Assembly (NCBI GenBank): GCA_026387335.1 | Contig: JAPLLX010000002.1 | Location: 13,326-77,325 of the forward strand | Source: Candidatus Omnitrophota bacterium | Lineage (GTDB): Bacteria; Omnitrophota; Gorgyraeia; Gygaellales; Profunditerraquicolaceae | Direction of reading: 5' to 3' | Length of the DNA stretch: 64,000 bases | Shown here: positions 4,224 to 62,494 of the stretch, piece by piece | Position numbering within the stretch: position 1 is the stretch's first letter | Layout of the letters: each line of letters opens with the position of its first letter | Translations under genes and position numbers: made by a program | The notes under the pieces: model-generated | The model's input: the letters and a program-made list of their open reading frames with translations, nothing else | The model's database searches: none | Told to the model about the DNA's origin: nothing

Positions 4224-4230
4224 AGGAATA

Positions 4231-4294
4231 AATAGGGACAGCGACCATTTTTCCCTGGTCGCCTAGACAGAAAAATGGTCGCTGTCCCTATTTA
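4231..4294. repeat. REPIN copy 3
   Basis: AATAGGGACAGCGACCATTTTTCCCTGGTCGCCTAGACAGAAAAATGGTCGCTGTCCCTATTTA. Sits between atpE and the b-delta gene inside the ATP synthase operon. Confidence 0.9.
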
Positions 4295-6886: not shown

Positions 6887-10733
<3,847 letters not shown>

Positions 10734-10735
<2 letters not shown>

Positions 10736-10797
10736 ATAGGGACAGCGACCATTTTTTCCTGGTCGCATAGATAGAAAAATGGTCGCTGTCCCTATTT
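10734..10797. repeat. REPIN copy 4
   Basis: Begins at the pilB stop codon. AATAGGGACAGCGACCATTTTTTCCTGGTCGCATAGATAGAAAAATGGTCGCTGTCCCTATTTA. Confidence 0.9.
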
Positions 10798-10812
10798 ATT
10801 ACGGAGAAATAA

Positions 10813-12051
10813 ATGATATTTTTATACAAAGCCAAAAAGAGTTTAAATGAGATAGTTGAAGGTAGATTAGAAAAGGATAGCGTTGAGCAGGTTATTGAAG
10901 AGCTGCAGTCAAAAGGCCTGGTTCCGGTTTCTGTTGAGCCGCAAGAGATAAAAATCGCCCCAGATTCGCCCGCAGAAGCGACGACCGTCAAGAAGCCGGT
11001 TTTAAGGTTTAGGAGCGGGAAGTGGGGGTTAAAACAGCTGGTCCTCTTTACGCAAAAATTATACAACTTGATAAACTCCCGCGTGGAGTTACTCAGCGCC
11101 CTTAGGCTTTTAGAGAAAAATTGCGAAAACCCGACGGAGAAGGCGCTCTTAGAAGATATCATCAAGAATATTAAGGACGGCATAGCTTTTTCCGGGTGCC
11201 TTAACCGTTATCCGCAGTATTTTCCCCAGCTTTACGTCCACATAATACATACCGGAGAGACCACCGGTAAATTAAAAGAGGCGCTGTCGCAGCTTTTGGA
11301 TTACTTGCGCCGGGTCGAGGATTTAAAGAGTAAAGTCAAACAGGCGCTGGCGTATCCGATATTTATGACCGTCGTCGGTATAGGCACGATCTGCGTTATG
11401 CTGACTTTTGTCCTTCCGCGCCTGGCGAGTATGTTTGACGATTACAATGCCCAGCTCCCGATGCCTACGCTCATTTTACTTAATACCGCGGGGTTCGTTA
11501 AACATTACTGGTTGTTCATCGCGGCATTTTTTATTTTTCTTATTTTTGTCCTCAAGTTTAGCTCTCAAGGGAAAGAAAGCTTCTTCTCGCGGTTAAAATA
11601 CCACATTCCGATAGCCAAAGATATCGTTTATAAGCAGTCAGTGGAAAATTTCTCAAGAAGCATCGCCCTGCTTTTACAAAGCGGAGTTACACTTCTTGCC
11701 GCGCTTAAAGATGCCGCCTTTGTTATCGGTAATCCGGTTTACATTGAACAGCTGGAACAGGTGCGTAAGGATATCAGCGAGGGCGGCACCTTCTCCGGAT
11801 CGCTGGCAAAATTCAAGATATTTCCGGATTTTTTTGTGCAGATGATCCGTGTCGGAGAAGAGGGCGGAAGGCTGGACCAGGTGCTTTTGGATATAGCCGA
11901 TTCCTACGAGAAGGATATCGAAGCTGACCTGAAGGTAGTCAGTTCCCTTATTGAGCCGGCGATAATATTAGTCCTGGGTTTGGTCATCGGAGGCATGGTC
12001 ATTGCCATGCTTTTACCGATATTTAATATGAACAGCCTTTTCGGCAGCTAA
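10813..12051 (+). CDS. pilC: Type II secretion / type IV pilus inner-membrane platform protein (GspF/PilC family)
   Basis: Two T2SSF repeats, three TM helices, characteristic length of 412 aa. Confidence 0.85.
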   Translation: MIFLYKAKKSLNEIVEGRLEKDSVEQVIEELQSKGLVPVSVEPQEIKIAPDSPAEATTVKKPVLRFRSGKWGLKQLVLFTQKLYNLINSRVELLSALRLLEKNCENPTEKALLEDIIKNIKDGIAFSGCLNRYPQYFPQLYVHIIHTGETTGKLKEALSQLLDYLRRVEDLKSKVKQALAYPIFMTVVGIGTICVMLTFVLPRLASMFDDYNAQLPMPTLILLNTAGFVKHYWLFIAAFFIFLIFVLKFSSQGKESFFSRLKYHIPIAKDIVYKQSVENFSRSIALLLQSGVTLLAALKDAAFVIGNPVYIEQLEQVRKDISEGGTFSGSLAKFKIFPDFFVQMIRVGEEGGRLDQVLLDIADSYEKDIEADLKVVSSLIEPAIILVLGLVIGGMVIAMLLPIFNMNSLFGS

Positions 12052-12109
12052 TTAATAGGGACAGCGACCATTTTTTTCTGGCCGTTTAGATAAAAAAAAT
12101 GGTCGCTGT
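12044..12109. repeat. REPIN copy 5 (variant loop CTGGCCG)
   Basis: Overlaps the pilC stop TAA. AATAGGGACAGCGACCATTTTTTTCTGGCCGTTTAGATAAAAAAAATGGTCGCTGTCCCTATTTA. Confidence 0.9.
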
Positions 12110-12121
12110 CCCTATTTAAAT

Positions 12122-13495
12122 ATGAAAACAAAAGTAATAATAGAGCTTTCCGAGCGCTGGCTTAAAGTCACGATTGGCCGCAAGGTTTCTGTTGATCCTA
12201 TATTGAACACAGACCCGGCGACAATAGCCGCGTTATTAACTTCAGTTTTTAAGCAGAGTAAATGCGGCAAGGATCTGGAAGTCTTTGTGGTTTTAAGCCG
12301 CAACAAAATAACCGTGCGCCGCGTCGACCTGCCTTCGCAAGACCCCAAAGAAATCGAGCAGATGCTTGGGCTCTATCTTATCCGTCAGATCCCGTATCAT
12401 AAAGAAGAGGTTTTCTGGGCCTATCAGAATTTGGGTTTTGACGGGATAAGCAACAGCCATATACTCTTGGCTATAGCCCTAAAGAATATGTTCAGGAACA
12501 TCGTGACTTCGTTTGGGCCGCTGAATCTGTTACCTGAATCTATATTGATGAGCTCTCAAGGGTTGATCCATTATGTTTCCGACGCGCTTAAAGATAAGAG
12601 CGTTTTACAGGGGCCGTATTTAATACTGGATATAGATACTAATTACAGCGAGCTGATCCTGGTCAACAAGCAAAAATTAAATTCCAGCGTAGTCCTGGCC
12701 CAGGGCGCCGAGCAATTGAAAGATGAGCGGGAAAAAGACAGGTTTATTGTTGAGCTTAAGCAGGGTTTGGTGGCCTTTAATAGCGAGGTCCCCGACGTAA
12801 AAGCGGAGAGACTCTTTTTAAGCGGAGCCTCAGAAGCTCAGCTGGTTATTGTGGAAGCAGCTTTAGCCAGGGACTTTAATATAAAGGCGCAATATGTCTC
12901 GACAAAGGATTATGATAGTTTTAACCCGGGTCAGCCCAAAGAGCTTTCGCTTTCAGCAGCGCTGGGTTTTAGCTCCCAGGTAGCCAGAGACGATATAAAG
13001 TTCATCCTTCCGGAGTTACAGATAAAGAAGGAGATGCAGGCCAAGGCCCGCCAGCTTATGGTTTTAGGGGTATGCCTGGTTTACATATTTATTATGTTCT
13101 GCGCGATCGGCCTGGTAAGGATGGCCCAGAAACAATCTTATTCCGCCAACCTTAAGGCTAAAGTAAAGAGCCTGGCTAAGGATACGCAGGAGCTGGAGGA
13201 TATAACCAATAAGCTTAAGGTGGCCAAACAATATGTAAACCCCAAGGCTTCTGTCCTTACGTTGCTTTATGAACTTTCTCGCTTTTGCCCCGAGGGTATA
13301 ACCATCACAAATTTCAACTGGGAATTGGGAAAGACTTTTTCTTTCCGGGGCTACGCGCAACAAATTCCGGATATATTGGCATTCACCAATACTTTGAGCA
13401 ATTCCGAATATTTTAAAGGCGCGCAAAACCGTTATACCCGCAGGCGTACCGTCAAAGACAGGGAGATGGTTGATTTTGAAATCGTAATTAAATAG
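12122..13495 (+). CDS. PilM-like (actin/FtsA-like) domain fused to a PilN-like transmembrane plus periplasmic segment
   Basis: About 300-aa N-terminal cytoplasmic domain, then a single TM helix LMVLGVCLVYIFIMFCAIGLV, then about 130 aa more. The position directly after pilC fits pilM/pilN. Family assignment is by architecture, not strong motifs. Confidence 0.45.
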   Translation: MKTKVIIELSERWLKVTIGRKVSVDPILNTDPATIAALLTSVFKQSKCGKDLEVFVVLSRNKITVRRVDLPSQDPKEIEQMLGLYLIRQIPYHKEEVFWAYQNLGFDGISNSHILLAIALKNMFRNIVTSFGPLNLLPESILMSSQGLIHYVSDALKDKSVLQGPYLILDIDTNYSELILVNKQKLNSSVVLAQGAEQLKDEREKDRFIVELKQGLVAFNSEVPDVKAERLFLSGASEAQLVIVEAALARDFNIKAQYVSTKDYDSFNPGQPKELSLSAALGFSSQVARDDIKFILPELQIKKEMQAKARQLMVLGVCLVYIFIMFCAIGLVRMAQKQSYSANLKAKVKSLAKDTQELEDITNKLKVAKQYVNPKASVLTLLYELSRFCPEGITITNFNWELGKTFSFRGYAQQIPDILAFTNTLSNSEYFKGAQNRYTRRRTVKDREMVDFEIVIK

Positions 13496-13555
13496 GGACA
13501 GCGACCATTTTTCTGGTCGCTCAGCTAAGAGAAAAACGGTCGCTGTCCCTATTTA
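13492..13555. repeat. REPIN copy 6
   Basis: Its first triplet TAG is the stop of the PilMN ORF. Loop variant with AAAAACGG. Confidence 0.9.
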
Positions 13556-33198: not shown

Positions 33199-34107
33199 AT
33201 GATTATTGACAGCCATAGCCATTGGTTGCCGGAAGGCATAATCAACAACGCTCATTTTTATCATAAGGGTTGGGGTGATATTGAGGCTCAACTTAAGATG
33301 ATGGATGAGGCAGGAATTGATAAGGCGGTTTTGTCATATCCGACAACCGACGCGCACCTAAAGTTGGGCAGTATATCCGAAGTCGTGCGCATATTTAATG
33401 ACCATGTCGGCAAAATCATTCAAATTTATCCGGATAGGTTTATCGGCGCGGCGATCCTCCCGATAGATCACCAACCGGATATGCTTAAAGAGCTAAAACG
33501 CGCGACCGAAGAATTAGGTTTTAAGGCCGTGTCTCTAGCGACCAGTTACGCCGGAATTTATTTGGACGACGCAAGATTCCTGGAAGTATACAAGATCGCG
33601 CAAAGCCAAAACTTGCCGATTTTTGTACACTCACAGATTGTAAAACCGATAGGCAGCGAGCGCGTAGAGGACCCGTTGCTTACGCCGGTGATTGAATATG
33701 TCTTTGATACGACGATGTGCATAGGCAAACTCTTAATGGCGGATATTTTACGCGATTATAAAGTGAAATTTATCTTTGGTTACTTTGGCGGAGTAACGCC
33801 ATTCCTGGCGAATAGATTTGACGCGACCTATCAGATGCTGCGAGGAATGAATTTTGTTAAGGATTTAGGAGCTAACCCCAGCGAATACTTAAAAAATATT
33901 TATGTGGATACCAGCGGAGATAAGACGCAAGCGAATTTCTCGGCGGCGCTGGAATTATTAGGGCCCAAGCATATTTTATGGGGGAGCGACTGGCCGGCGA
34001 AGAAAGACATCGCTACAGGAATCCAAGCAGTCAAAAACTTAGCAATATCCGATGCGGATAAAAATAATATTTTAGGCGGTAATTTAGCTAGTATATTAGC
34101 TCTTTAA
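33199..34107 (+). CDS. Amidohydrolase-2 family (PF04909) metal-dependent hydrolase/decarboxylase
   Basis: N-terminal IIDSHSHWLPEG (HxH metal ligands); TIM-barrel length; the ...WGSDWP Asp near the C-terminus. Confidence 0.65.
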   Translation: MIIDSHSHWLPEGIINNAHFYHKGWGDIEAQLKMMDEAGIDKAVLSYPTTDAHLKLGSISEVVRIFNDHVGKIIQIYPDRFIGAAILPIDHQPDMLKELKRATEELGFKAVSLATSYAGIYLDDARFLEVYKIAQSQNLPIFVHSQIVKPIGSERVEDPLLTPVIEYVFDTTMCIGKLLMADILRDYKVKFIFGYFGGVTPFLANRFDATYQMLRGMNFVKDLGANPSEYLKNIYVDTSGDKTQANFSAALELLGPKHILWGSDWPAKKDIATGIQAVKNLAISDADKNNILGGNLASILAL

Positions 34108-34121
34108 TACTGTTATTTGAT

Positions 34122-34300
34122 ATTTCGCCTGCGGGTATTGTTCGCGCACGAAAATTTTCGCCGAGTGCTTCGGCTTACGACTCACTCCCGGAAGGACTTA
34201 CGCTAGGAAGAATTCCTCCGTTCGTCGTAATTCCTCGCACTCTTTTGCCGAAAATTTTCTAATTGTGCGCTTCACAACACCCTCCGGTAAAATATCTATA
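34122..34300. repeat. Repeat family C copy 1 (about 180 bp element with imperfect terminal inverted repeats)
   Basis: GGGTATTGTTCGCGCACGAAAATTTTCGCC ... GCCGAAAATTTTCTAATTGTGCGCTTCACAACACCC. Highly similar to 62184-62382. Confidence 0.75.
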
Positions 34301-34395
34301 ATCAATAGAATATAGGGAAACGGCTCTAAGAGTTTCCGCTTAAGTTTGAGTCCCCGTAGGGATATAAAGGTTGGTAATTAAGAATAGGAGGCTGA

Positions 34396-34983
34396 TTGAT
34401 GAACACAGAAGTTAAAAAGAACATAGGTATGGGTGTTGTAATAGGTATTATTGTTTTCAGTATATGCTATTTGTTAGTACAGCCAATGTTAAACTTTATA
34501 ACTCCTAAATTCCTTAATTTAATCGCAAAATGCTTCTCTTTTCTTTCTAACGCAATATATGCGAATGCCGCCTACAGAAACACAAATAGCTACGATTCCT
34601 TTCTTTTTACTTTTCTTATGGAATCTTTTGCTTTTGTTTTTCTGATTGCATTAGCACTATCTTTTATAACTAAAGATAGATTCAGGAAATTCGTTGGAAA
34701 TCTTCCAGAACCCAAACTATGGCCCATACGGATTGTTTGTATAATTGCGTTTCTATTGATTGGAATAATGTCAATAGTAGAATACTCTAATGATTACTTG
34801 AATCTGCGATTTTCCCATAAAGTTACAATTATCGCTCCCTATTTATCTAATCAAGCAGAAAAAGAATTACTGGCGCAATGGGCTTTAATGAAGAATAAAA
34901 AAGATTATGAAAGTTTGGATAATTTGCTCAAAAATTATGCGCAAGCAAATAATATAAAAGAACCAAAAAGTCTATGGAAATAA
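34396..34983 (+). CDS. Hypothetical polytopic membrane protein, AT-rich (likely acquired)
   Basis: Four hydrophobic helices; GGAGG RBS; GC content is visibly lower than the neighbours. Confidence 0.3.
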   Translation: MMNTEVKKNIGMGVVIGIIVFSICYLLVQPMLNFITPKFLNLIAKCFSFLSNAIYANAAYRNTNSYDSFLFTFLMESFAFVFLIALALSFITKDRFRKFVGNLPEPKLWPIRIVCIIAFLLIGIMSIVEYSNDYLNLRFSHKVTIIAPYLSNQAEKELLAQWALMKNKKDYESLDNLLKNYAQANNIKEPKSLWK

Positions 34984-35003
34984 AGGTGATAATTCTATTT
35001 TAG

Positions 35004-35112
35004 CGGGTGACACGGTGACGGATTCCTTACTTTCCCGCAGGGCGAATGCCCGAGGACAAAGTAAGGTGGCACCGTGGCAGGACCCGCTGAATCAGGCGGG
35101 CTAGAGCAAGCG
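35004..35112 (+). ncRNA. Structured 5' leader (candidate riboswitch or cis-regulatory RNA) upstream of the salvage operon
   Basis: Nested complementary segments: GCGGGTG...CACCCGC (outer), CACGGTG/CACCGTG, CTTACTTT/AAAGTAAG, GGGCG/CGCCC. Class not identified. Confidence 0.3.
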
Positions 35113-46692: not shown

Positions 46693-47532
46693 ATGAAAAC
46701 TTTTATACTTTTGTTTCAGTGCAGGGACCAAAAAGGGATTGTCGCTAAACTGGCGGATTTTATTTTTAAGGCCGGCGGTAATATCATTAACGCTGACCAG
46801 TATTCTACGGACCCGGCAGGCGGATATTTCTTTATCAGAGTAGAGTTTCTAATTAACGCGCCATCAGGGAAAGCTGCCCTAGAGAAGGGTTTAAGCGTTA
46901 TCGCTAAGAGCTTACAGGCGAAGTTTTCGCTCTATGATAAGGAAAAACCGCTGCGTATGGGCATATGCGTTTCTAGCCCCGGGCATTGCCTGGCGGAGAT
47001 ATTATATTTATGGAGAGAGCGGGAGTTAAACGTAGATACACCTTTGGTCATCTCTAACTTTGAGGGGCACCGGGAATTCGCCAGGCAGTATAAGGTCCCG
47101 TTTTATTTTATTCCGGCGACTAAGAATAGCCGCAGGGAAGGAGAATTATTAAAGATAGTTTCTCGAGACACTGATTTTTTGGTGCTCGCCCGCTATATGC
47201 TTGTGCTATCTAAGAAATTCCTTAACGCTTATGGCAAAGACATTATAAATATTCATCACGGGTTTCTGCCTTCGTTTAAAGGGAGTAATCCTTATGGGCA
47301 GGCGCTTAATCAAGGCGTTAAGGTGATCGGCGCGACCAGTCATTTTGTGGCTGAAAAACTGGATACTGGCCCGATTATTACCCAGGAAGTAGAATACGTC
47401 TCGCATAAAGATGCCTTAAAGGATTTGGTGCGTAAGGGTAAGAATTTAGAGAAGAGGGCATTAGTTGAGGCTATCCGCGCCTATATTGACTACCGCGTCA
47501 TTAAACACAATAATAAAACCATAGTCTTTTAA
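46693..47532 (+). CDS. purU: Formyltetrahydrofolate deformylase
   Basis: N-terminal ACT domain (ILLFQCRDQKGIVAKLADFI), then the formyltransferase core (INIHHGFLPSFKG; HxxxD region). Confidence 0.85.
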   Translation: MKTFILLFQCRDQKGIVAKLADFIFKAGGNIINADQYSTDPAGGYFFIRVEFLINAPSGKAALEKGLSVIAKSLQAKFSLYDKEKPLRMGICVSSPGHCLAEILYLWRERELNVDTPLVISNFEGHREFARQYKVPFYFIPATKNSRREGELLKIVSRDTDFLVLARYMLVLSKKFLNAYGKDIINIHHGFLPSFKGSNPYGQALNQGVKVIGATSHFVAEKLDTGPIITQEVEYVSHKDALKDLVRKGKNLEKRALVEAIRAYIDYRVIKHNNKTIVF

Positions 47533-47594
47533 TAGGGACAGCGACCATTTTTCTTGGTCGCAGAGAAGAGAAAAATGGTCGCTGTCCCTATTTA
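47531..47594. repeat. REPIN copy 7
   Basis: Overlaps the purU stop TAA. Identical to copy 8, including the loop CTTGGTCGCAGAGAAGAG. Confidence 0.9.
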
Positions 47595-48677: not shown

Positions 48678-49328
48678 ATGAGCGAACATAAGCCTAAATC
48701 TATCCAGAATATTGAAGAAAAAATGGAATCACTGGATACAAATTCATTGCGTTATCATATACTGGAGAGCGCTAAGAATTTTAAAATCTCCTGGATCGAA
48801 CTTGGGCGTTCACTTTACTCGGTATGGAAAGATAAATTATATAAGGATTGGGGTTTTAGCACGTTTGATATATATACCGCTAAAGAGATTGGAATAAGGA
48901 AACCTACGGCTATGAAGCTTCTGCGTTCGTATTATTTTCTGGAGAAAGAAGAACCGGCATATTTAAAAAATGACTATACCGAAGCAGCCAAGGTCCCCAG
49001 TTATGAGGCAGTGGATCTGTTGCGTAAGGCAAAAGATAAGAAAAACCTGGATGCGCAGGATTATTCTAAACTAAAAAAAGAAATTTTTGAGGATGGCAAA
49101 GATATCCAATCGGTAAAGCGGGATTTAACTTCTTTAATCCGGCAAAGGGAAGAGCTGGAGCCGCAAGAGGCGTATAAGAGAAGAAGGGTAGCGACCTTAA
49201 GAAGATTTATCGGCAGCTTAAAAGCGTTAAAACAGGAGGCAGAGATATCCAAATTGCTTCCCATGGCGCTTATTAAGGACGCTGGGGAGCTGATAAAGAA
49301 GATAGAAGAGCAAATTGAGAATAAATAG
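48678..49328 (+). CDS. Hypothetical protein
   Basis: ORF only; the stop TAG lies inside REPIN copy 8. Confidence 0.3.
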   Translation: MSEHKPKSIQNIEEKMESLDTNSLRYHILESAKNFKISWIELGRSLYSVWKDKLYKDWGFSTFDIYTAKEIGIRKPTAMKLLRSYYFLEKEEPAYLKNDYTEAAKVPSYEAVDLLRKAKDKKNLDAQDYSKLKKEIFEDGKDIQSVKRDLTSLIRQREELEPQEAYKRRRVATLRRFIGSLKALKQEAEISKLLPMALIKDAGELIKKIEEQIENK

Positions 49329-49387
49329 GGACAGCGACCATTTTTCTTGGTCGCAGAGAAGAGAAAAATGGTCGCTGTCCCTATTTA
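49324..49387. repeat. REPIN copy 8
   Basis: Identical to copy 7. Confidence 0.9.
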
Positions 49388-49394
49388 TCATAAG

Positions 49395-51104
49395 ATGAAT
49401 ATAATTAAAATACTGGAAGAGAGAGCGCTGAATACCCCGGATAAACCCGCGGTATTTTTTAGGGAGCAGGTTATTTCATTCTTTAAGCTTAAGGATGTAT
49501 CTGCTCGTCTCGCCGGAGCTTTGAAGAAATTAGGCGTGAATAAGGGCGATAAAATAGCGCTATACCTGCCGAGTTGGCCGGAGTATATTTTTAGTTACTT
49601 GAGCATCTGGCGCCTGGGTGCTGTAGCCGTGCCTTTAGATTTTATGCTCACCGAAGATGAGCTGGTGGCCTGCCTTACGCATTCCGCAGCCAAAATTTTA
49701 ATTGCCAAATCTAAGGCCAACCTCTCTTTGGATGCACTTAAGAAAAGATGTCCGGGGTTAAAGCAGATAATCACCTGTCAGGATAAAGCCGAGGGGTTTT
49801 TATTTTTTGATGAATGCGTGGAAAAAAGCGAAGCGCAAGGTATGAACGCGGATGTGCAGGATAAAGATTACGCGATTATTTTTTATACCTCCGGGACCAC
49901 CGGAAAACCCAAAGGGGTGTTAATAAATTATCTGCAATTAAGCGCTCCTCCAAAATCTATGGAGTTTTTTGTCAATTCGGATTTAAGCGCTAAAGATACG
50001 ACTTTATGCGCCCTACCTTTTTCGCATCTGGGAGGGTTGATTTATATCCAGAACACAGTTGTTTTTGGCCTGAAGCTGGTTTTAATGGAGCGTTTTATCC
50101 CTTCGGAATTTTTAAAGAACATCCAAAACTATAAAGTTAACTTTTTCTGGCTCGTTCCTTCCATGTATTACGCGCTCTTACAATTAAAAGAATTTGAAAC
50201 ATTTGATTTGAGTTCTTTGCGTTGGATAGTTACTTTCGGCGCTTCTAATTCCGCGGATGCCCTGCGCAGATTCCATCAGTTCTGCCCTAAGGCGCATCTT
50301 TTAAACGGTTGGGGCCTGACCGAGACCAACGCGCCCAGCGTAGTCTTGGCTATGGGCTCAAAAAAAATAGAAAGCGTGGGCAGGCCTGCTCCGTGGATAG
50401 AGGTAAAGGTATTTGACGATACGGATAAAGAAGTTAAAACAGGCCAAGTCGGAGAGATTGTGGTTAAAAGTTGGGTAGTTACCGACGGGTATTATAAGGA
50501 TACCGCCCTGACCAAAGAAACTTTTAAGAACGGATGGTTTCATACAGGAGATTTGGGTAAATTTGACCCTGAAGGCGACCTCTATATCGTCGGCAGGAAA
50601 AAAGAGATGATCAAAGTGGGCGGAGAGATTGTTTTTGAGCCGGAGGTAGAGTCGGTAATTTACCGGCATCCGGATGTTGCCGAAGCAGCGGTTGTCGGCG
50701 TTACGGATAAATTAAGGGGAGAGTTGCCTAAGGCCTGGGTGGTTTTAAAAGATGGCAAGGCATTAAGCGAAGAAGACCTGCGTTATTTTTGCCGGGAGCA
50801 CCTGGCGCATTTTAAGATCCCGCATTATTTTGAATTTGTGAAGTCGCTTCCCAAAAATCGTACCGGAAAAATTGACAAAGAGCAACTCAGGGACGGTTCT
50901 CAAGCCAATCTTAAAGTGTCCCCTTTATGGGGACACTTTTGCTTTGAGTTGAGAACCGTCCCTAACTGTCTATGGAAGATATCACGAAGTTGTCCCTTGA
51001 GGAACTGGAAGATAAACTTAAAGGTAGTGGCGCTAAAGGCTATCATGCCGGCCAGATTTTCTCCTGGATTTATAATAAAGCAACCCTGGATTTCGCTGAA
51101 ATGA
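49395..51104 (+). CDS. AMP-dependent synthetase/ligase (acyl-CoA synthetase family). The 3' end reads through a palindromic element
   Basis: AMP-binding motif IFYTSGTTGKPKGV; C-terminal NRTGKIDKEQLR conserved-Lys motif at about 50860-50890. The frame then continues without a stop through element B copy 1 to 51104, overlapping rlmN. Confidence 0.8.
   Translation: MNIIKILEERALNTPDKPAVFFREQVISFFKLKDVSARLAGALKKLGVNKGDKIALYLPSWPEYIFSYLSIWRLGAVAVPLDFMLTEDELVACLTHSAAKILIAKSKANLSLDALKKRCPGLKQIITCQDKAEGFLFFDECVEKSEAQGMNADVQDKDYAIIFYTSGTTGKPKGVLINYLQLSAPPKSMEFFVNSDLSAKDTTLCALPFSHLGGLIYIQNTVVFGLKLVLMERFIPSEFLKNIQNYKVNFFWLVPSMYYALLQLKEFETFDLSSLRWIVTFGASNSADALRRFHQFCPKAHLLNGWGLTETNAPSVVLAMGSKKIESVGRPAPWIEVKVFDDTDKEVKTGQVGEIVVKSWVVTDGYYKDTALTKETFKNGWFHTGDLGKFDPEGDLYIVGRKKEMIKVGGEIVFEPEVESVIYRHPDVAEAAVVGVTDKLRGELPKAWVVLKDGKALSEEDLRYFCREHLAHFKIPHYFEFVKSLPKNRTGKIDKEQLRDGSQANLKVSPLWGHFCFELRTVPNCLWKISRSCPLRNWKINLKVVALKAIMPARFSPGFIIKQPWISLK
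50889..50964. repeat. Palindromic element family B copy 1 (nested inverted repeats AGGGACGGTTCTCAA...TTGAGAACCGTCCCT around AAGTGTCCCC...GGGGACACTT)
   Basis: Read directly; 91% identical to 56249-56327. Confidence 0.85.
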
Positions 51105-52666: not shown

Positions 52667-52749
52667 TGCCGGGAGAGGGAGTTGAACCCACATGAGCTTG
52701 CGCTCAACAGCTTTTGAGGCTGCCGCGTATGCCATTTCGCCATCCCGGC
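52667..52749 (-). tRNA. tRNA-Leu (anticodon CAA), class II with long variable arm
   Basis: Reverse complement folds as GCCGGGA / 3-bp D stem / anticodon stem GCAGC-loop CTCAAAA-GCTGT / variable stem-loop TGAGC-GCAA-GCTCA / T arm GTGGG-TTCAACT-CCCTC (one U-U mismatch) / TCCCGGC-A. No encoded CCA. Confidence 0.65.
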
Positions 52750-52816: not shown

Positions 52817-52892
52817 GGGGCTGTAGCTCAGCTGGGAGAGCACTTGCATGGCATGCAAGGGGTCAGGAGTTCAATCCTCCTCAGCTCCACCA
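52817..52892 (+). tRNA. tRNA-Ala (anticodon GGC) with G3:U70 identity pair and encoded CCA
   Basis: GGGGCTG-TA-GCTC-AGCTGGGA-GAGC-A-CTTGC-ATGGCAT-GCAAG-GGGTC-AGGAG-TTCAATC-CTCCT-CAGCTCC-ACCA; the anticodon-loop centre is GGC. Confidence 0.85.
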
Positions 52893-56248: not shown

Positions 56249-56327
56249 GTTAGGGACGGTTCTCAAGCTAATCTTAAAGTGTCCCCATTAAGGGGACACT
56301 TTAGCTTTGAGTTGAGAACCGTCCCTA
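56249..56327. repeat. Palindromic element family B copy 2
   Basis: Immediately after the leuS stop: TTAGGGACGGTTCTCAAGCTAATCTTAAAGTGTCCCCATTAAGGGGACACTTTAGCTTTGAGTTGAGAACCGTCCCTAA. Confidence 0.85.
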
Positions 56328-56381
56328 ATATTTAGTTAGATTTTGTTTCCTGCCACGTCTATTAGAGCAGGAGGTGGGAAG

Positions 56382-60609: not shown

Positions 60610-62175
60610 ATGTCAACAGCCAAATTTTCGCGTCCAACCAATCAATCAGTCGCTAAATCAGCCAGTGTCATAGGACTGGCTACTCTTATCTCGCGTTTAT
60701 TGGGTTTTTTAAGAGATATTGTTATTGCCCGCCTTTTTGGCGTATATGTCTATGCCCAGGCATTTGTCATAGCCTTTAGGATCCCCAACCTCTTTCGGGA
60801 CTTAGTCGGTGAAGGAGCGACTAACGCCGCGTTTGTGCCGGTATTCAGTGAATACGCCAGTCAGCGCTCCAAAGAAGAATTTTGGGAGCTGGCTAACGTT
60901 GTTTTAAATATTTTATTGGTAATACTTATGTCCATAACTATCCTGGGCATAATATTCTCTCCCGTAATTGTGCGCCTGATTGCTCCCGGTTTTATCGCTT
61001 CCCCGGAAAAGTTGAATGCCACCATAACCCTTAACCGGATTATATTTCCTTATATCCTGTTGATCAGTTTAAGCGCTTATTCCATGGGGGTGCTTAATTC
61101 TTTGAAACATTTTGCTGTCCCTGCTTTCGCGCCCTGCCTTTTGAATATCTCAATAATTGTCTGCGCGCTTGTTTTTGGAGAGGGGATCAAGGGGTTGGCT
61201 TTGGGCGTGTTGTTAGGAGGCCTGTTACAACTGGCTATTCAAATCCCGGTTCTTTATAAAAAGGGATTTCGCTTGAAAAAGCCCCGGACTTTAAACCATC
61301 CTGCCGCCAGGCAGATAGGCAAATTAATGCTTCCCCGTGTTTTAAGTTCCTGCATTTATCAGTTGAATAATTTCGTAGATTCCATATTTGGTTCGCTCGC
61401 CTGGATTGTCGGTGAGGGGGGAGTCGCGGTCCTCTATTTTTCGTACAGGCTGATACAATTTCCGTTAGGGATTTTTAGCAACGCGATTTCCCAGGCTATC
61501 CTGCCGACTTTTTCTACGCAGGCATTGGAAGAATCGCACGACAAATTAAAAAATACTCTCTCCTGGGGTCTGCGCGCGGTCTTTTTTGTTATGCTGCCGG
61601 CTTCGGTAGGCTTTATGTTTTTAGCCGACCCGGTGATTACAACATTATTCGGCGGAGGCAGATTTGACGCTTATTCCGCCCGGCTTACCTCCGGAGCGCT
61701 TTTCTATTACAGCTTAGGATTATTTGCCTACGGCGGGACAAAAATATTACAAGCGTGTTTTTTTAGCCTCAAAGACACGGTTACCCCCACTAAAGTTGCG
61801 GCCGTATCATTGGTATCAAATGTCATTTTAATCGTGATATTAATGTTCCCGCTAAAGATTTCCGGGATCGCGCTGGCTACTTCCATATCGGGGATAATCG
61901 CCTTTTTTATCCTGTTTTTCATATTAGAGAAGAGGATCGGCGATTTTGGGAGAAGGCAGATAGTTGTTTCTTTCCTGCGCGTTTTGGCGGCAAGCTTCTG
62001 TATGGGGCTGGTCTGTTATTTCGCGGCCAAAATTCCTTTAAACAAATATTTAAGTTTAGCAATCAGCGTTGTATCCGGAGTATTTTCTTATATTGTTTTC
62101 TGCCTCATATTCAGAGTGAGCGAAATGCGCCAACTTTGGCATTGGATTATACTCAAAGAGAAGCCAGCAATTTAA
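60610..62175 (+). CDS. murJ: Lipid II flippase MurJ (MviN)
   Basis: N-terminal LATLISRLLGFLRDIVIARLFG signature and about 14 TM helices. Confidence 0.85.
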   Translation: MSTAKFSRPTNQSVAKSASVIGLATLISRLLGFLRDIVIARLFGVYVYAQAFVIAFRIPNLFRDLVGEGATNAAFVPVFSEYASQRSKEEFWELANVVLNILLVILMSITILGIIFSPVIVRLIAPGFIASPEKLNATITLNRIIFPYILLISLSAYSMGVLNSLKHFAVPAFAPCLLNISIIVCALVFGEGIKGLALGVLLGGLLQLAIQIPVLYKKGFRLKKPRTLNHPAARQIGKLMLPRVLSSCIYQLNNFVDSIFGSLAWIVGEGGVAVLYFSYRLIQFPLGIFSNAISQAILPTFSTQALEESHDKLKNTLSWGLRAVFFVMLPASVGFMFLADPVITTLFGGGRFDAYSARLTSGALFYYSLGLFAYGGTKILQACFFSLKDTVTPTKVAAVSLVSNVILIVILMFPLKISGIALATSISGIIAFFILFFILEKRIGDFGRRQIVVSFLRVLAASFCMGLVCYFAAKIPLNKYLSLAISVVSGVFSYIVFCLIFRVSEMRQLWHWIILKEKPAI

Positions 62176-62183
62176 ATATATAG

Positions 62184-62382
62184 CTATTTCGCTCTCAGGG
62201 TATTGTTCGCGTGCGAAATTTTTCGCCGTGTGCTACGGTTTACGGCTCGTTCCGGCAGCGCAAGGTTCCTCACGCTAAAGGATATTGCCTACACTCGCCG
62301 TAAAGCCTTGCACACATTTGCCGAAAAATTTCTAATTGCACGCTTAACAATACCCTCAAGCAAAATATCTATAGAATGCACT
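62184..62382. repeat. Repeat family C copy 2
   Basis: GGGTATTGTTCGCGTGCGAAATTTTTCGCC ... GCCGAAAAATTTCTAATTGCACGCTTAACAATACCC; shares both ends and several internal blocks with 34122-34300. Confidence 0.75.
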
Positions 62383-62427
62383 AAGCGTATGGCTTGGCTT
62401 GTTTTGTCCCTGCGGGAAATAAGACAG

Positions 62428-62455
62428 CACCCGATCCTATCGGATGGATCGGTGT
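62428..62455. repeat. Conserved hairpin D copy 2 (CACCCGATCC-TATCGGAT-GGATCGGTGT)
   Basis: Same loop as 32143-32171, with compensatory stem changes. Confidence 0.5.
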
Positions 62456-62494
62456 GCCGCTTTCTGCGGCAAGGCCAGACGCAGGGATATTTAT

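Follow-up and report, generated by a model that had tools for sequence, protein, structure and literature searches.

Hairpin-forming intergenic repeats of about 190 bases in uncultured Omnitrophota

Introduction

What kind of element recurs behind two different genes of one bacterium, folds back on itself over its whole length, and changes its two arms together? This question is raised by a stretch of 64,000 nucleotides from a Candidatus Omnitrophota bacterium (hereafter the window; contig JAPLLX010000002.1). A preliminary description, made from the sequence alone, had placed two copies of a 'TIR element', family C, at 34122-34300 and 62184-62382, and had read a matched base change between their arms as a sign of selection on secondary structure, in a small RNA or a hairpin-dependent mobile element, rather than neutral drift. 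To our knowledge, the non-coding genome of the Omnitrophota, which are uncultured and often ultra-small, is essentially uncharted. We found no description in the published literature that links these bacteria with such repeats.

Results

Two copies in the window each form a rod-like hairpin

A search with a covariance model (R1) found exactly two family C copies in the window, both on the plus strand and with bounds a few bases wider than first given (Table 1). The terminal motifs originally quoted for them (30 nt at the 5' end and 39 nt at the 3' end) matched exactly. With up to three mismatches allowed, each was present exactly twice in the 64 kb, both times on the plus strand, against a chance expectation of 0 (100 shuffles). 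The reported position just downstream of plus-strand genes was borne out for both copies. Copy 1 starts about 8 (6-10) bases past the stop codon of an Amidohydro_2 gene (33199-34107, +), and copy 2 starts 4-10 bases past the stop codon of murJ (60610-62175, +), with a uvrC-like gene next; copy 2 ends 5-9 bases ahead of a hairpin of a second family, D. The sole Rfam hits in the window are two divergently oriented tRNA genes lying 68 nt apart.

Each copy folded into one rod-like hairpin that was much more stable than shuffled sequences. The plus strand of copy 1 folded at -64.1 kcal/mol (z -5.9 against shuffles) and its minus strand at -79.3 (z -8.7); the corresponding values for copy 2 were -73.8 (z -7.4) and -93.0 (z -10.2). 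The copies are 80% identical in pairwise alignment. Out of 59 modelled stem pairs, 46 are identical between them, nine are changed on both sides with pairing kept, and four are uncompensated (one one-sided change, three unpaired in one copy). The compensatory change that first drew attention, GAGTGC..GCACTC against GTGTGC..GCACAC, is real and is one of the nine. As for the 'TIR element' label, the inverted arms are indeed there, but the terminal definition does not hold: the palindrome, imperfect and conserved in its middle, runs from end to end.

Table 1. Location of family C hairpins, their parts and associated features (positions in the window unless a collected locus, L, is named)
Feature	Location	Strand	Remarks
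Family C copy 1, whole imperfect hairpin of ~190 nt	34115..34303	+	R1 covariance model, 185.2 bits, full model
Copy 1, conserved 5' core: GCGCAC / GAAAATTTTCG / C-C / GAGTGC / TTC / GGCTTACGAC	34144..34185	+	helices P2-P5, 5' strands
Copy 1, variable apical domain, short type	34186..34219	+	alignments: two main apex types, many covarying pairs
Copy 1, conserved 3' core: GTCGTAA / TTCCTC / GCACTC / TTTTG / CCGAAAATTTTC / TAATT bulge / GTGCGC	34220..34270	+	
Copy 1, TAATT bulge, 3' arm	34260-34264	+	read from sequence
Family C copy 2, whole hairpin, long apex type	62179..62376	+	R1 covariance model, 189.4 bits
Copy 2, conserved TAATT bulge, 3' arm	62333..62337	+	read from sequence
Family D hairpin	34998..35093	+	after inserted ORF 34399-34983, 50 bases before PNP_UDP_1 start; z -5.3
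Family D hairpin	62381..62487	+	directly after copy 2, 8 bases before uvrC-like start codon; z -4.0
CTATAG / TATAAT-like motif at the 3' end of C	34291-34302; 62364-62375		
Amidohydrolase-PNP_UDP_1 slot	window 34304-34997; L126 2645-4960; L012 5719-7310; L041 258-1945; L118 397-2190; L054 426-1270; L138 1293-2905		
Inverted E arms, loci free of C	L144 3898-4235; L146 3898-4172		
Inverted C pair, L002	1054-1241; 1949-2144	+; -	flanks 195-aa ORFan, no Pfam match
Inverted C pair, L021	5548-5736; 6927-7120	+; -	flanks 291-aa ORFan, no Pfam match
Inverted C pair, L053	1146-1363; 1443-1655	+; -	80 nt apart
Hairpin repeat of ~70 nt, eight copies	1975-2045; 2790-2859; 4226-4294; 10730-10798; 12049-12118; 13487-13555; 47526-47594; 49319-49387		
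Hairpin repeat of 77 nt, two copies	50889-50965; 56252-56328		95% identical
tRNA genes	52667-52749; 52817-52889	-; +	

Family C recurs in Omnitrophota genomes and in metagenomes

In species-representative genomes, a 22-base core pattern occurred at 17 places in 12 MAGs, with up to four places per MAG; the label is Candidatus Omnitrophota for 14 of the places, 'uncultured Planctomycetales' for two and 'bacterium' for one. With a pattern from the opposite arm, at least 120 stretches of metagenome DNA were matched. Over all collected DNA, a profile search then gave at least 145 non-overlapping family C hits, 133 of them full length and 121 distinct. Viral contigs scanned with the core pattern yielded no match, and thus there is no sign of a phage origin.

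An Rfam scan had been proposed in the preliminary description. At the gathering threshold, no Rfam family matched family C in the window or in 16 related loci, and both copies searched at E <= 10 returned chance-level hits only; hits across the window and these loci were tRNAs, one FMN riboswitch elsewhere, and chance-level matches. Coding potential was rejected on the ground of single-base indels within the conserved core. We conclude that family C is a set of undescribed hairpin-forming intergenic repeats of about 190 bases in uncultured Omnitrophota.

An invariant middle lies between variable but paired ends

The family C hairpin has three zones: a near-invariant middle, and an outer stem and an apex that vary in sequence and yet stay paired. 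The outer stem is AT-rich, comprises about 13 + 10 pairs, and is the most variable part, being wholly different in sequence between subfamilies (entirely so in L004, L015, L018 and L042). The next helix inward, CGCGYRC/GYRCGC, carries a TAAT(T) bulge, and is followed by a perfectly paired central 11-bp helix, GAAAWTTTTCG/CGAAAAWTTTC. Beyond it come a fixed mismatch, C-C, and a loop of 4-5 nt (J), then a helix GWGYRC/GYRCWC, a small internal loop and a helix GGTTTACG/CGTAAA(T)CC. The apex is variable and sometimes branched, with two main types, a short one in copy 1 and a long one in copy 2. Across the 121 copies the core columns are near-invariant, also on the arm that the search pattern had left free, and the TAAT(T) bulge and the J loop are confined to the 3' arm in the whole family.

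The 3' arm also has two sites that accept extra sequence. One is J, which may hold an insert of ~17 nt carrying ..ATAGC.GTG; the other takes a perfect 20-nt GC hairpin, CCTGCCTGCCGGCAGGCAGG, in three divergent copies. This 20-nt palindrome is found at one fixed site of C, on the 3' arm, in L007, L115 and L053, and also inside the D hairpins of L088 and L126, which suggests a tiny REP-like palindrome that lands in the loops of other hairpins.

Pairing is maintained by compensatory change

Covariation in a larger alignment had been put forward beforehand as the means by which selection on structure could be refuted, and the outcome was the opposite of refutation. Thirty-two diverse copies were aligned with MAFFT and curated, and the structure was checked by hand; 91.9% of the stem cells were paired, compared with 37-52% in slid controls. 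This alignment contained 157 cells changed on both sides, as against 61 +/- 7 in shuffles, and none of 500 shuffles reached this number. An alignment of 104 distinct copies was fitted to R1, hence is biased towards the model, and agrees with the MAFFT result: 93.3% of cells were paired (slid controls, 36-55%), both-side changes occurred in 38 of 60 pairs, and 862 cells were changed on both sides against 267 +/- 19 in shuffles, again with 0 of 500 as high. In the core helices ~99% of cells were paired. The central W position was A-U in 61 of the 121 copies and U-A in 59, with one exception. RNAalifold, run on the raw MAFFT alignment of 121 sequences, recovered the central helix alone, because the variable parts were misaligned. 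High pairing together with covariation far above shuffles indicates that the hairpin has been maintained by evolution, and the claim of selection rather than drift thus stands on two larger alignments that covary strongly. The family C hairpin is under evolutionary constraint, far above chance.

The folded strand may be DNA or RNA

Which nucleic acid is read is less plain. The minus strand folds more stably than the plus strand in 114 of the 121 copies, and does so without extra G-U pairs. In structured RNAs, G-U is as a rule much better tolerated than A-C. Here, G-U and A-C pairs made up 166 and 129 of the 6089 cells of the structural alignment, respectively, and 98 and 129 when two columns of conserved G-U were left out. 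Copies sense to their neighbours had 62 G-U against 72 A-C; antisense copies had 20 against 42, a weak 2:1 lean to wobble on the transcribed strand. This near-symmetry argues against a simple constraint on RNA from one strand. In the other direction, the family-wide bulges and the insertions on one arm argue for a specific folded single strand, and against mere homogenization of one arm by the other. GC skew tracks gene orientation and is uninformative on strand.

Family C lies mostly in the sense of its neighbouring genes

Both neighbours were on the strand of the element in 54 cases and both on the opposite strand in 18, with 8 mixed cases, an orientation that is ~3:1 co-directional with the neighbouring genes. 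Over 75 sense cases the median distance from stop codon to hairpin start was 21 nt, often with overlap of the stop; antisense copies lie farther from stop codons than sense copies do. In L004, L015 and L038, and by sequence also in L003 and L130, family C lies between tRNA-Lys and tRNA-Leu, and all ten tRNA genes found within 300 nt of a copy are on the strand of the element. At least the copies placed between same-strand tRNA genes must therefore be transcribed in the plus sense.

A promoter scan gave no promoter-like site associated with family C, and a terminator scan gave no terminator-like site at the hairpin 3' end of either window copy; terminator-like hits near copy 2 fall in murJ, in the neighbouring D hairpin and in the interior of the uvrC-like gene. 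An intrinsic terminator, with its GC-rich stem and subsequent T run, was rejected as the identity of family C, whose hairpin base is AT-rich with an A-rich 3' side. A -10-like TATAAT/TATAG box is present at the 3' edge of C, with no acceptable -35. More generally, a CTATAG / TATAAT-like motif recurs at module junctions, namely at the C 3' end, at the start of D, which begins 5-10 nt past it, and in the J insert of C. It could be a -10 box, or else a junction or cleavage motif.

Spacers combine C with other hairpins and with cargo genes

Among the 121 distinct full-length copies of C, at least 24 are directly followed by a family D hairpin. The base of D is conserved, TTAGCGG(G/A)TG..GGCAGGACCCGCTAAA or ..CAAGACAAGGCAGACGC, and its apex ranges from 40 to 170 nt; D occurs in both orientations shortly before start codons (PNP_UDP_1, uvrC-like, crcB), and has no Rfam match. 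It was also found in L013, L014, L068, L101, L116, L118, L126, L138, L143 and L145. A further module, E (GGCTAAAATCGACATTCGC..CAGATTCATT), lies 3' of C in at least 13 loci (for example L001, L002, L035, L118, L120 and L131). In relatives free of C, inverted E arms span the entire spacer from stop to start codon, so that sequence at the upstream stop codon can pair with sequence at the downstream start codon.

In the window the order is amidohydrolase, C, ORFan, D, PNP. L068 has C, D and PNP with no ORF between, and L118, L012, L041 and L126 have C, one or more unrelated ORFs, and D. The cargo of this slot includes Fic, an MNT-HEPN pair, DUF4145 and membrane ORFans. The slot between the amidohydrolase and PNP_UDP_1 genes is a hot spot for species-specific ORFans and for toxin- or defence-like genes, usually bracketed by C and D; in L139 and L142 it has almost no spacer. 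The spacers are therefore mosaics of hairpin modules. They resemble the bacterial interspersed mosaic elements of enterobacteria.

The window holds two further hairpin repeats. One of ~70 nt (AATAGGGACAGCGACC ... GGTCGCTGTCCCTATTTA) is present in eight copies, bordered by A-rich sequence on the 5' side and T-rich sequence on the 3' side, and may be a repeated bidirectional terminator-like hairpin. The other, of 77 nt (AGGGACGGTTCTCAAG ... TTGAGAACCGTCCCT), is present twice.

Copies are gained and lost, and some persist through speciation

An Amidohydro_2 gene followed by C was present at 13 collected loci (68-85% protein identity), a synteny sample that was selected for the presence of C, and murJ followed by C at four. 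At these loci the element is 73-82% identical in nucleotide sequence, compared with 59-73% for the last 300 nt of the gene and ~55-63% for unrelated downstream sequence. We also took an unbiased sample of ten amidohydrolase homologues, 74-91% identical and chosen regardless of C, and an R1 search found C at none of these ten loci. Two of the ten have spacers of only 25 and 64 nt. At the 91%-identical sister locus of the window, an inverted D hairpin stands in place of C. In the amidohydrolase protein tree, seven C-bearing loci from seven species form one clade, and the window and L126 carry C within a clade that otherwise lacks it; this gene tree requires gains or losses of C. The notion of an ancient, purely vertical element was rejected on the 0 of 10 found by unbiased locus sampling.

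Comparison of copies gave signs of turnover. Copy 1 matches a copy at a different locus, upstream of an unrelated DS-like gene (L033), at 95% identity, and its orthologue in L126 at only 82%. Copies within one MAG are near-identical at unrelated loci (L001, L006, L014, L016), and two compensated outer-stem pairs distinguish L001 from L006. The inner part (core and apex) was 0.82-0.94 identical in 7 of 11 same-genome pairs, whose outer stems differ; for same-locus pairs from different genomes, a typical value is roughly 0.77. Solo 3' arms also occur in fusion with an inverted D module, and one copy has a precise deletion of the apical half. Three loci hold inverted pairs of C (Table 1).

No shared direct repeat flanks L001, L006, L014 or either window copy, and no target-site duplication was visible at any copy examined. 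No transposase was found among 40 ORFs downstream of C and eight selected ORFans (Pfam, PADLOC), and no RAYT-like gene was seen in the examined loci, each of up to 14 kb. Family C thus behaves as interspersed repeats do, with gain, loss, exchange and decay of copies, and yet can persist through speciation.

Family C shares features with known repeats but apparently belongs to none of them

ERIC elements, of ~127 bp, are imperfect palindromes located in transcribed spacers near gene 3' ends in both orientations, with larger variants that arise through insertions at fixed internal sites and with some copies kept at orthologous loci (PMC3184786). Family C, like ERIC / IRU, is a whole-length palindrome in spacers near 3' ends, occurs in both orientations, takes insertions at fixed sites and is in part retained at orthologous loci. 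TIRs and a TA duplication at the flanks belong to the description of ERIC-type elements (PMC3184786). In contrast, family C is ~190 nt long, comes from a different phylum, has variable termini and an invariant middle, and shows no TA duplication; compared by eye only, it has no sequence resemblance to the 127-bp ERIC consensus. ERIC is co-transcribed as an RNA hairpin, which can modify the decay of mRNA (PMC3184786; Wilson and Sharp 2006, cited there and in PMC3116915), and co-transcription, RNase E effects and compensatory changes are discussed for ERIC and bcr1 (PMC3184786).

REPINs are doublets of REP sequences that form hairpins with compensatory changes, the hairpin being proposed to form in single-stranded DNA or mRNA (PMC3116915). 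They are non-autonomous, are mobilized by RAYT transposases, and can persist vertically (PMC3116915; bioRxiv 10.1101/2022.05.22.493013); at their ends lie conserved REP units, each a short palindrome tagged with GTAG or CGTC (PMC3733652). Family C resembles them in being a long hairpin with conserved blocks on both arms and a less conserved but compensating remainder, and, as in ERIC and REPIN families, its hairpin is maintained by compensatory change across copies. Unlike in REPINs, its conserved blocks lie mid-arm and there is no conserved tag: the A variant alone has a within-arm palindrome, GCGAAAATTTTCGC, which the T variant (59 of 121 copies) has lost, and CGTC is found only in the ACGAC/GTCGT variant. 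Its copy number is apparently in the tens, as against hundreds for REPINs. REPIN membership was rejected for want of terminal REP units with a tag, the blocks being mid-arm.

The bcr1 repeat of the Bacillus cereus group (~155 bp) is transcribed, with compensatory changes that keep a double-stranded structure in the RNA; it has 5-bp direct repeats on its flanks and lacks positional conservation (PMC3184786). Like bcr1 and the MITE-like Correia, RUP and Nezha elements, family C is interspersed, belongs to the 100-200 bp class, and keeps its hairpin by compensation. Unlike bcr1, it has no direct repeats, and one clade shows positional conservation. A classical MITE was rejected on two grounds, an outer stem that varies around an invariant middle where conserved terminal inverted repeats are expected, and no target-site duplication at near-identical copies or at the window copies. 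Family C is thus apparently a member of none of ERIC, REPIN and bcr1: its termini are unconserved, and it has neither duplication nor REP tag.

Other candidates were considered as well. RNase III processing hairpins of the phage T7 type are bulged and lie between cistrons of one transcript. Family C is also bulged and between cistrons, but is three times longer, with a sequence conserved across species. An integron attC site was rejected: on both strands the 5' arm carries GTT and the 3' arm AAC, a polarity opposite to that of RYYYAAC/GTTRRRY, GCTTAAC is present in a minority of copies, and copies are dispersed with no cassette arrays. A 6S RNA, a rod of ~180-200 nt with a large central bubble, was rejected since the centre of family C is a perfect 11-bp helix, the element is multicopy, and there was no RF00013 hit. 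An invertible promoter and a double-stranded DNA operator were rejected on architecture.

Discussion

We consider the chances about even that family C is an Omnitrophota-specific, non-coding interspersed palindromic repeat of the ERIC, REPIN and bcr1 kind, a mobile hairpin. Such an element would multiply or move between loci as a single-stranded hairpin, and a putative protein would recognize its conserved middle; this recognition would explain both the preserved pairing and the preserved core sequence. The equal rarity of G-U and A-C fits a hairpin that is read on DNA or on both strands. Copies inside transcription units would also be transcribed, and the long RNA hairpin, by analogy with ERIC, probably affects the processing or stability of neighbouring messages. 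Several points run counter to this reading. No target-site duplication was visible at the copies examined, and neither a transposase nor a RAYT-like gene was found in the loci covered. Conservation is lowest at the termini, contrary to what a classical TIR transposon shows. At one locus, conservation of the element exceeds that of adjacent coding DNA and inheritance is vertical in a clade of seven species, which a host function would also fit. The bulges and insertions on one arm point to a folded single strand that could equally be RNA.

We give a substantial minority chance to a structured RNA with a host function, either a cis-acting intercistronic or 3'-UTR module or a trans-acting RNA of ~190 nt. 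In cis it would be a site at which a double-strand-specific RNase processes the transcript, a 3' stabilizer or a transcription barrier; in trans it would be a stable RNA released from read-through or tRNA-operon transcripts and bound by protein at the conserved bulged core. The strong covariation and fixed architecture fit such an RNA, as do the conserved unpaired nucleotides on one arm only and the tolerance of extra hairpins at two fixed junctions. So do the placement of all ten nearby tRNA genes on its strand, its position between tRNA-Lys and tRNA-Leu in 3-5 genomes, the 3:1 co-orientation and the start ~20 nt past stop codons. It would also be consistent with conservation above that of flanking coding DNA, with one locus kept by a seven-species clade, with recurrence at conserved positions upstream of pilin-like, DS-like and MTHFR genes, and with an inner part that is often genome-specific, as expected under co-evolution with a partner. 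On the other hand, G-U is not favoured over A-C (98 against 129, and 62 against 72 in sense copies), about a quarter of the copies are antisense to both neighbours, and there is neither an associated promoter-like or terminator-like site nor a matching Rfam family. C was absent from all ten unbiased orthologous spacers, and a perfect 11-bp helix of invariant sequence is unusual for RNA recognition. An RNA-level function might also extend beyond C, although we regard this as unlikely: C would be not selfish DNA but one module of a system in which C, D, E and other hairpins tile operon spacers as protein-recognized processing or insulation units, pairing sequence at the upstream stop codon with sequence at the downstream start codon and with the invariant bulged core of C as the putative binding site of a dedicated protein. 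As a variant, C and D would be the ends of a new hairpin-bounded gene cassette.

In a further reading, which we find distinctly unlikely, C is a cruciform or hairpin site at the DNA level that a recombinase or nuclease recognizes and that marks slots for insertion, and C and D bound small exchangeable cassettes placed between housekeeping genes. It draws on the C - cargo ORF - D order of the window and of L118, L012, L041 and L126 beside the plain C - D of L068, on cargo such as Fic, the MNT-HEPN pair and DUF4145, on the ORFs between inverted C copies in L002 and L021, on the CTATAG that recurs at module junctions, and on the symmetry of G-U and A-C. However, no recombinase is linked to C in the loci examined, C forms no arrays, the GTT/AAC polarity is opposite to that of integron attC and the motifs are unconserved, and many copies sit between housekeeping genes with no cargo. 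Spacers that follow operons tolerate insertions anyway, and the cargo pattern may be coincidence. Finally, the palindrome could be kept mechanically and free of selection, if one arm corrected the other in an extruded hairpin during replication or repair. The two compensated outer-stem pairs that separate the near-identical L001 and L006 would agree with this, as would equally rare G-U and A-C. Yet arm-to-arm correction would erase the conserved asymmetries, namely the TAAT(T) bulge, the J loop, the C-C mismatch and the insertions of 17-20 nt on the 3' arm only. It is largely contradicted by these one-arm features, and we hold it to be highly improbable.

C, D and E together show that long, structurally constrained hairpins fill the spacers of Omnitrophota. 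Should C be mobile DNA, it would be a new family of hairpin-dependent repeats, and its enzyme could reveal a new system of single-strand DNA transposition. If C is RNA, it is a new class of structured RNA with an unusually rich covariation record, ready for Rfam; were the wider RNA-level system true, C would be a new stable RNA-protein particle or processing signal. The R1 covariance model can be used to annotate these elements, to mark Omnitrophota contigs in metagenomes, and to flag spacers where variable toxin-like or defence-like genes accumulate.
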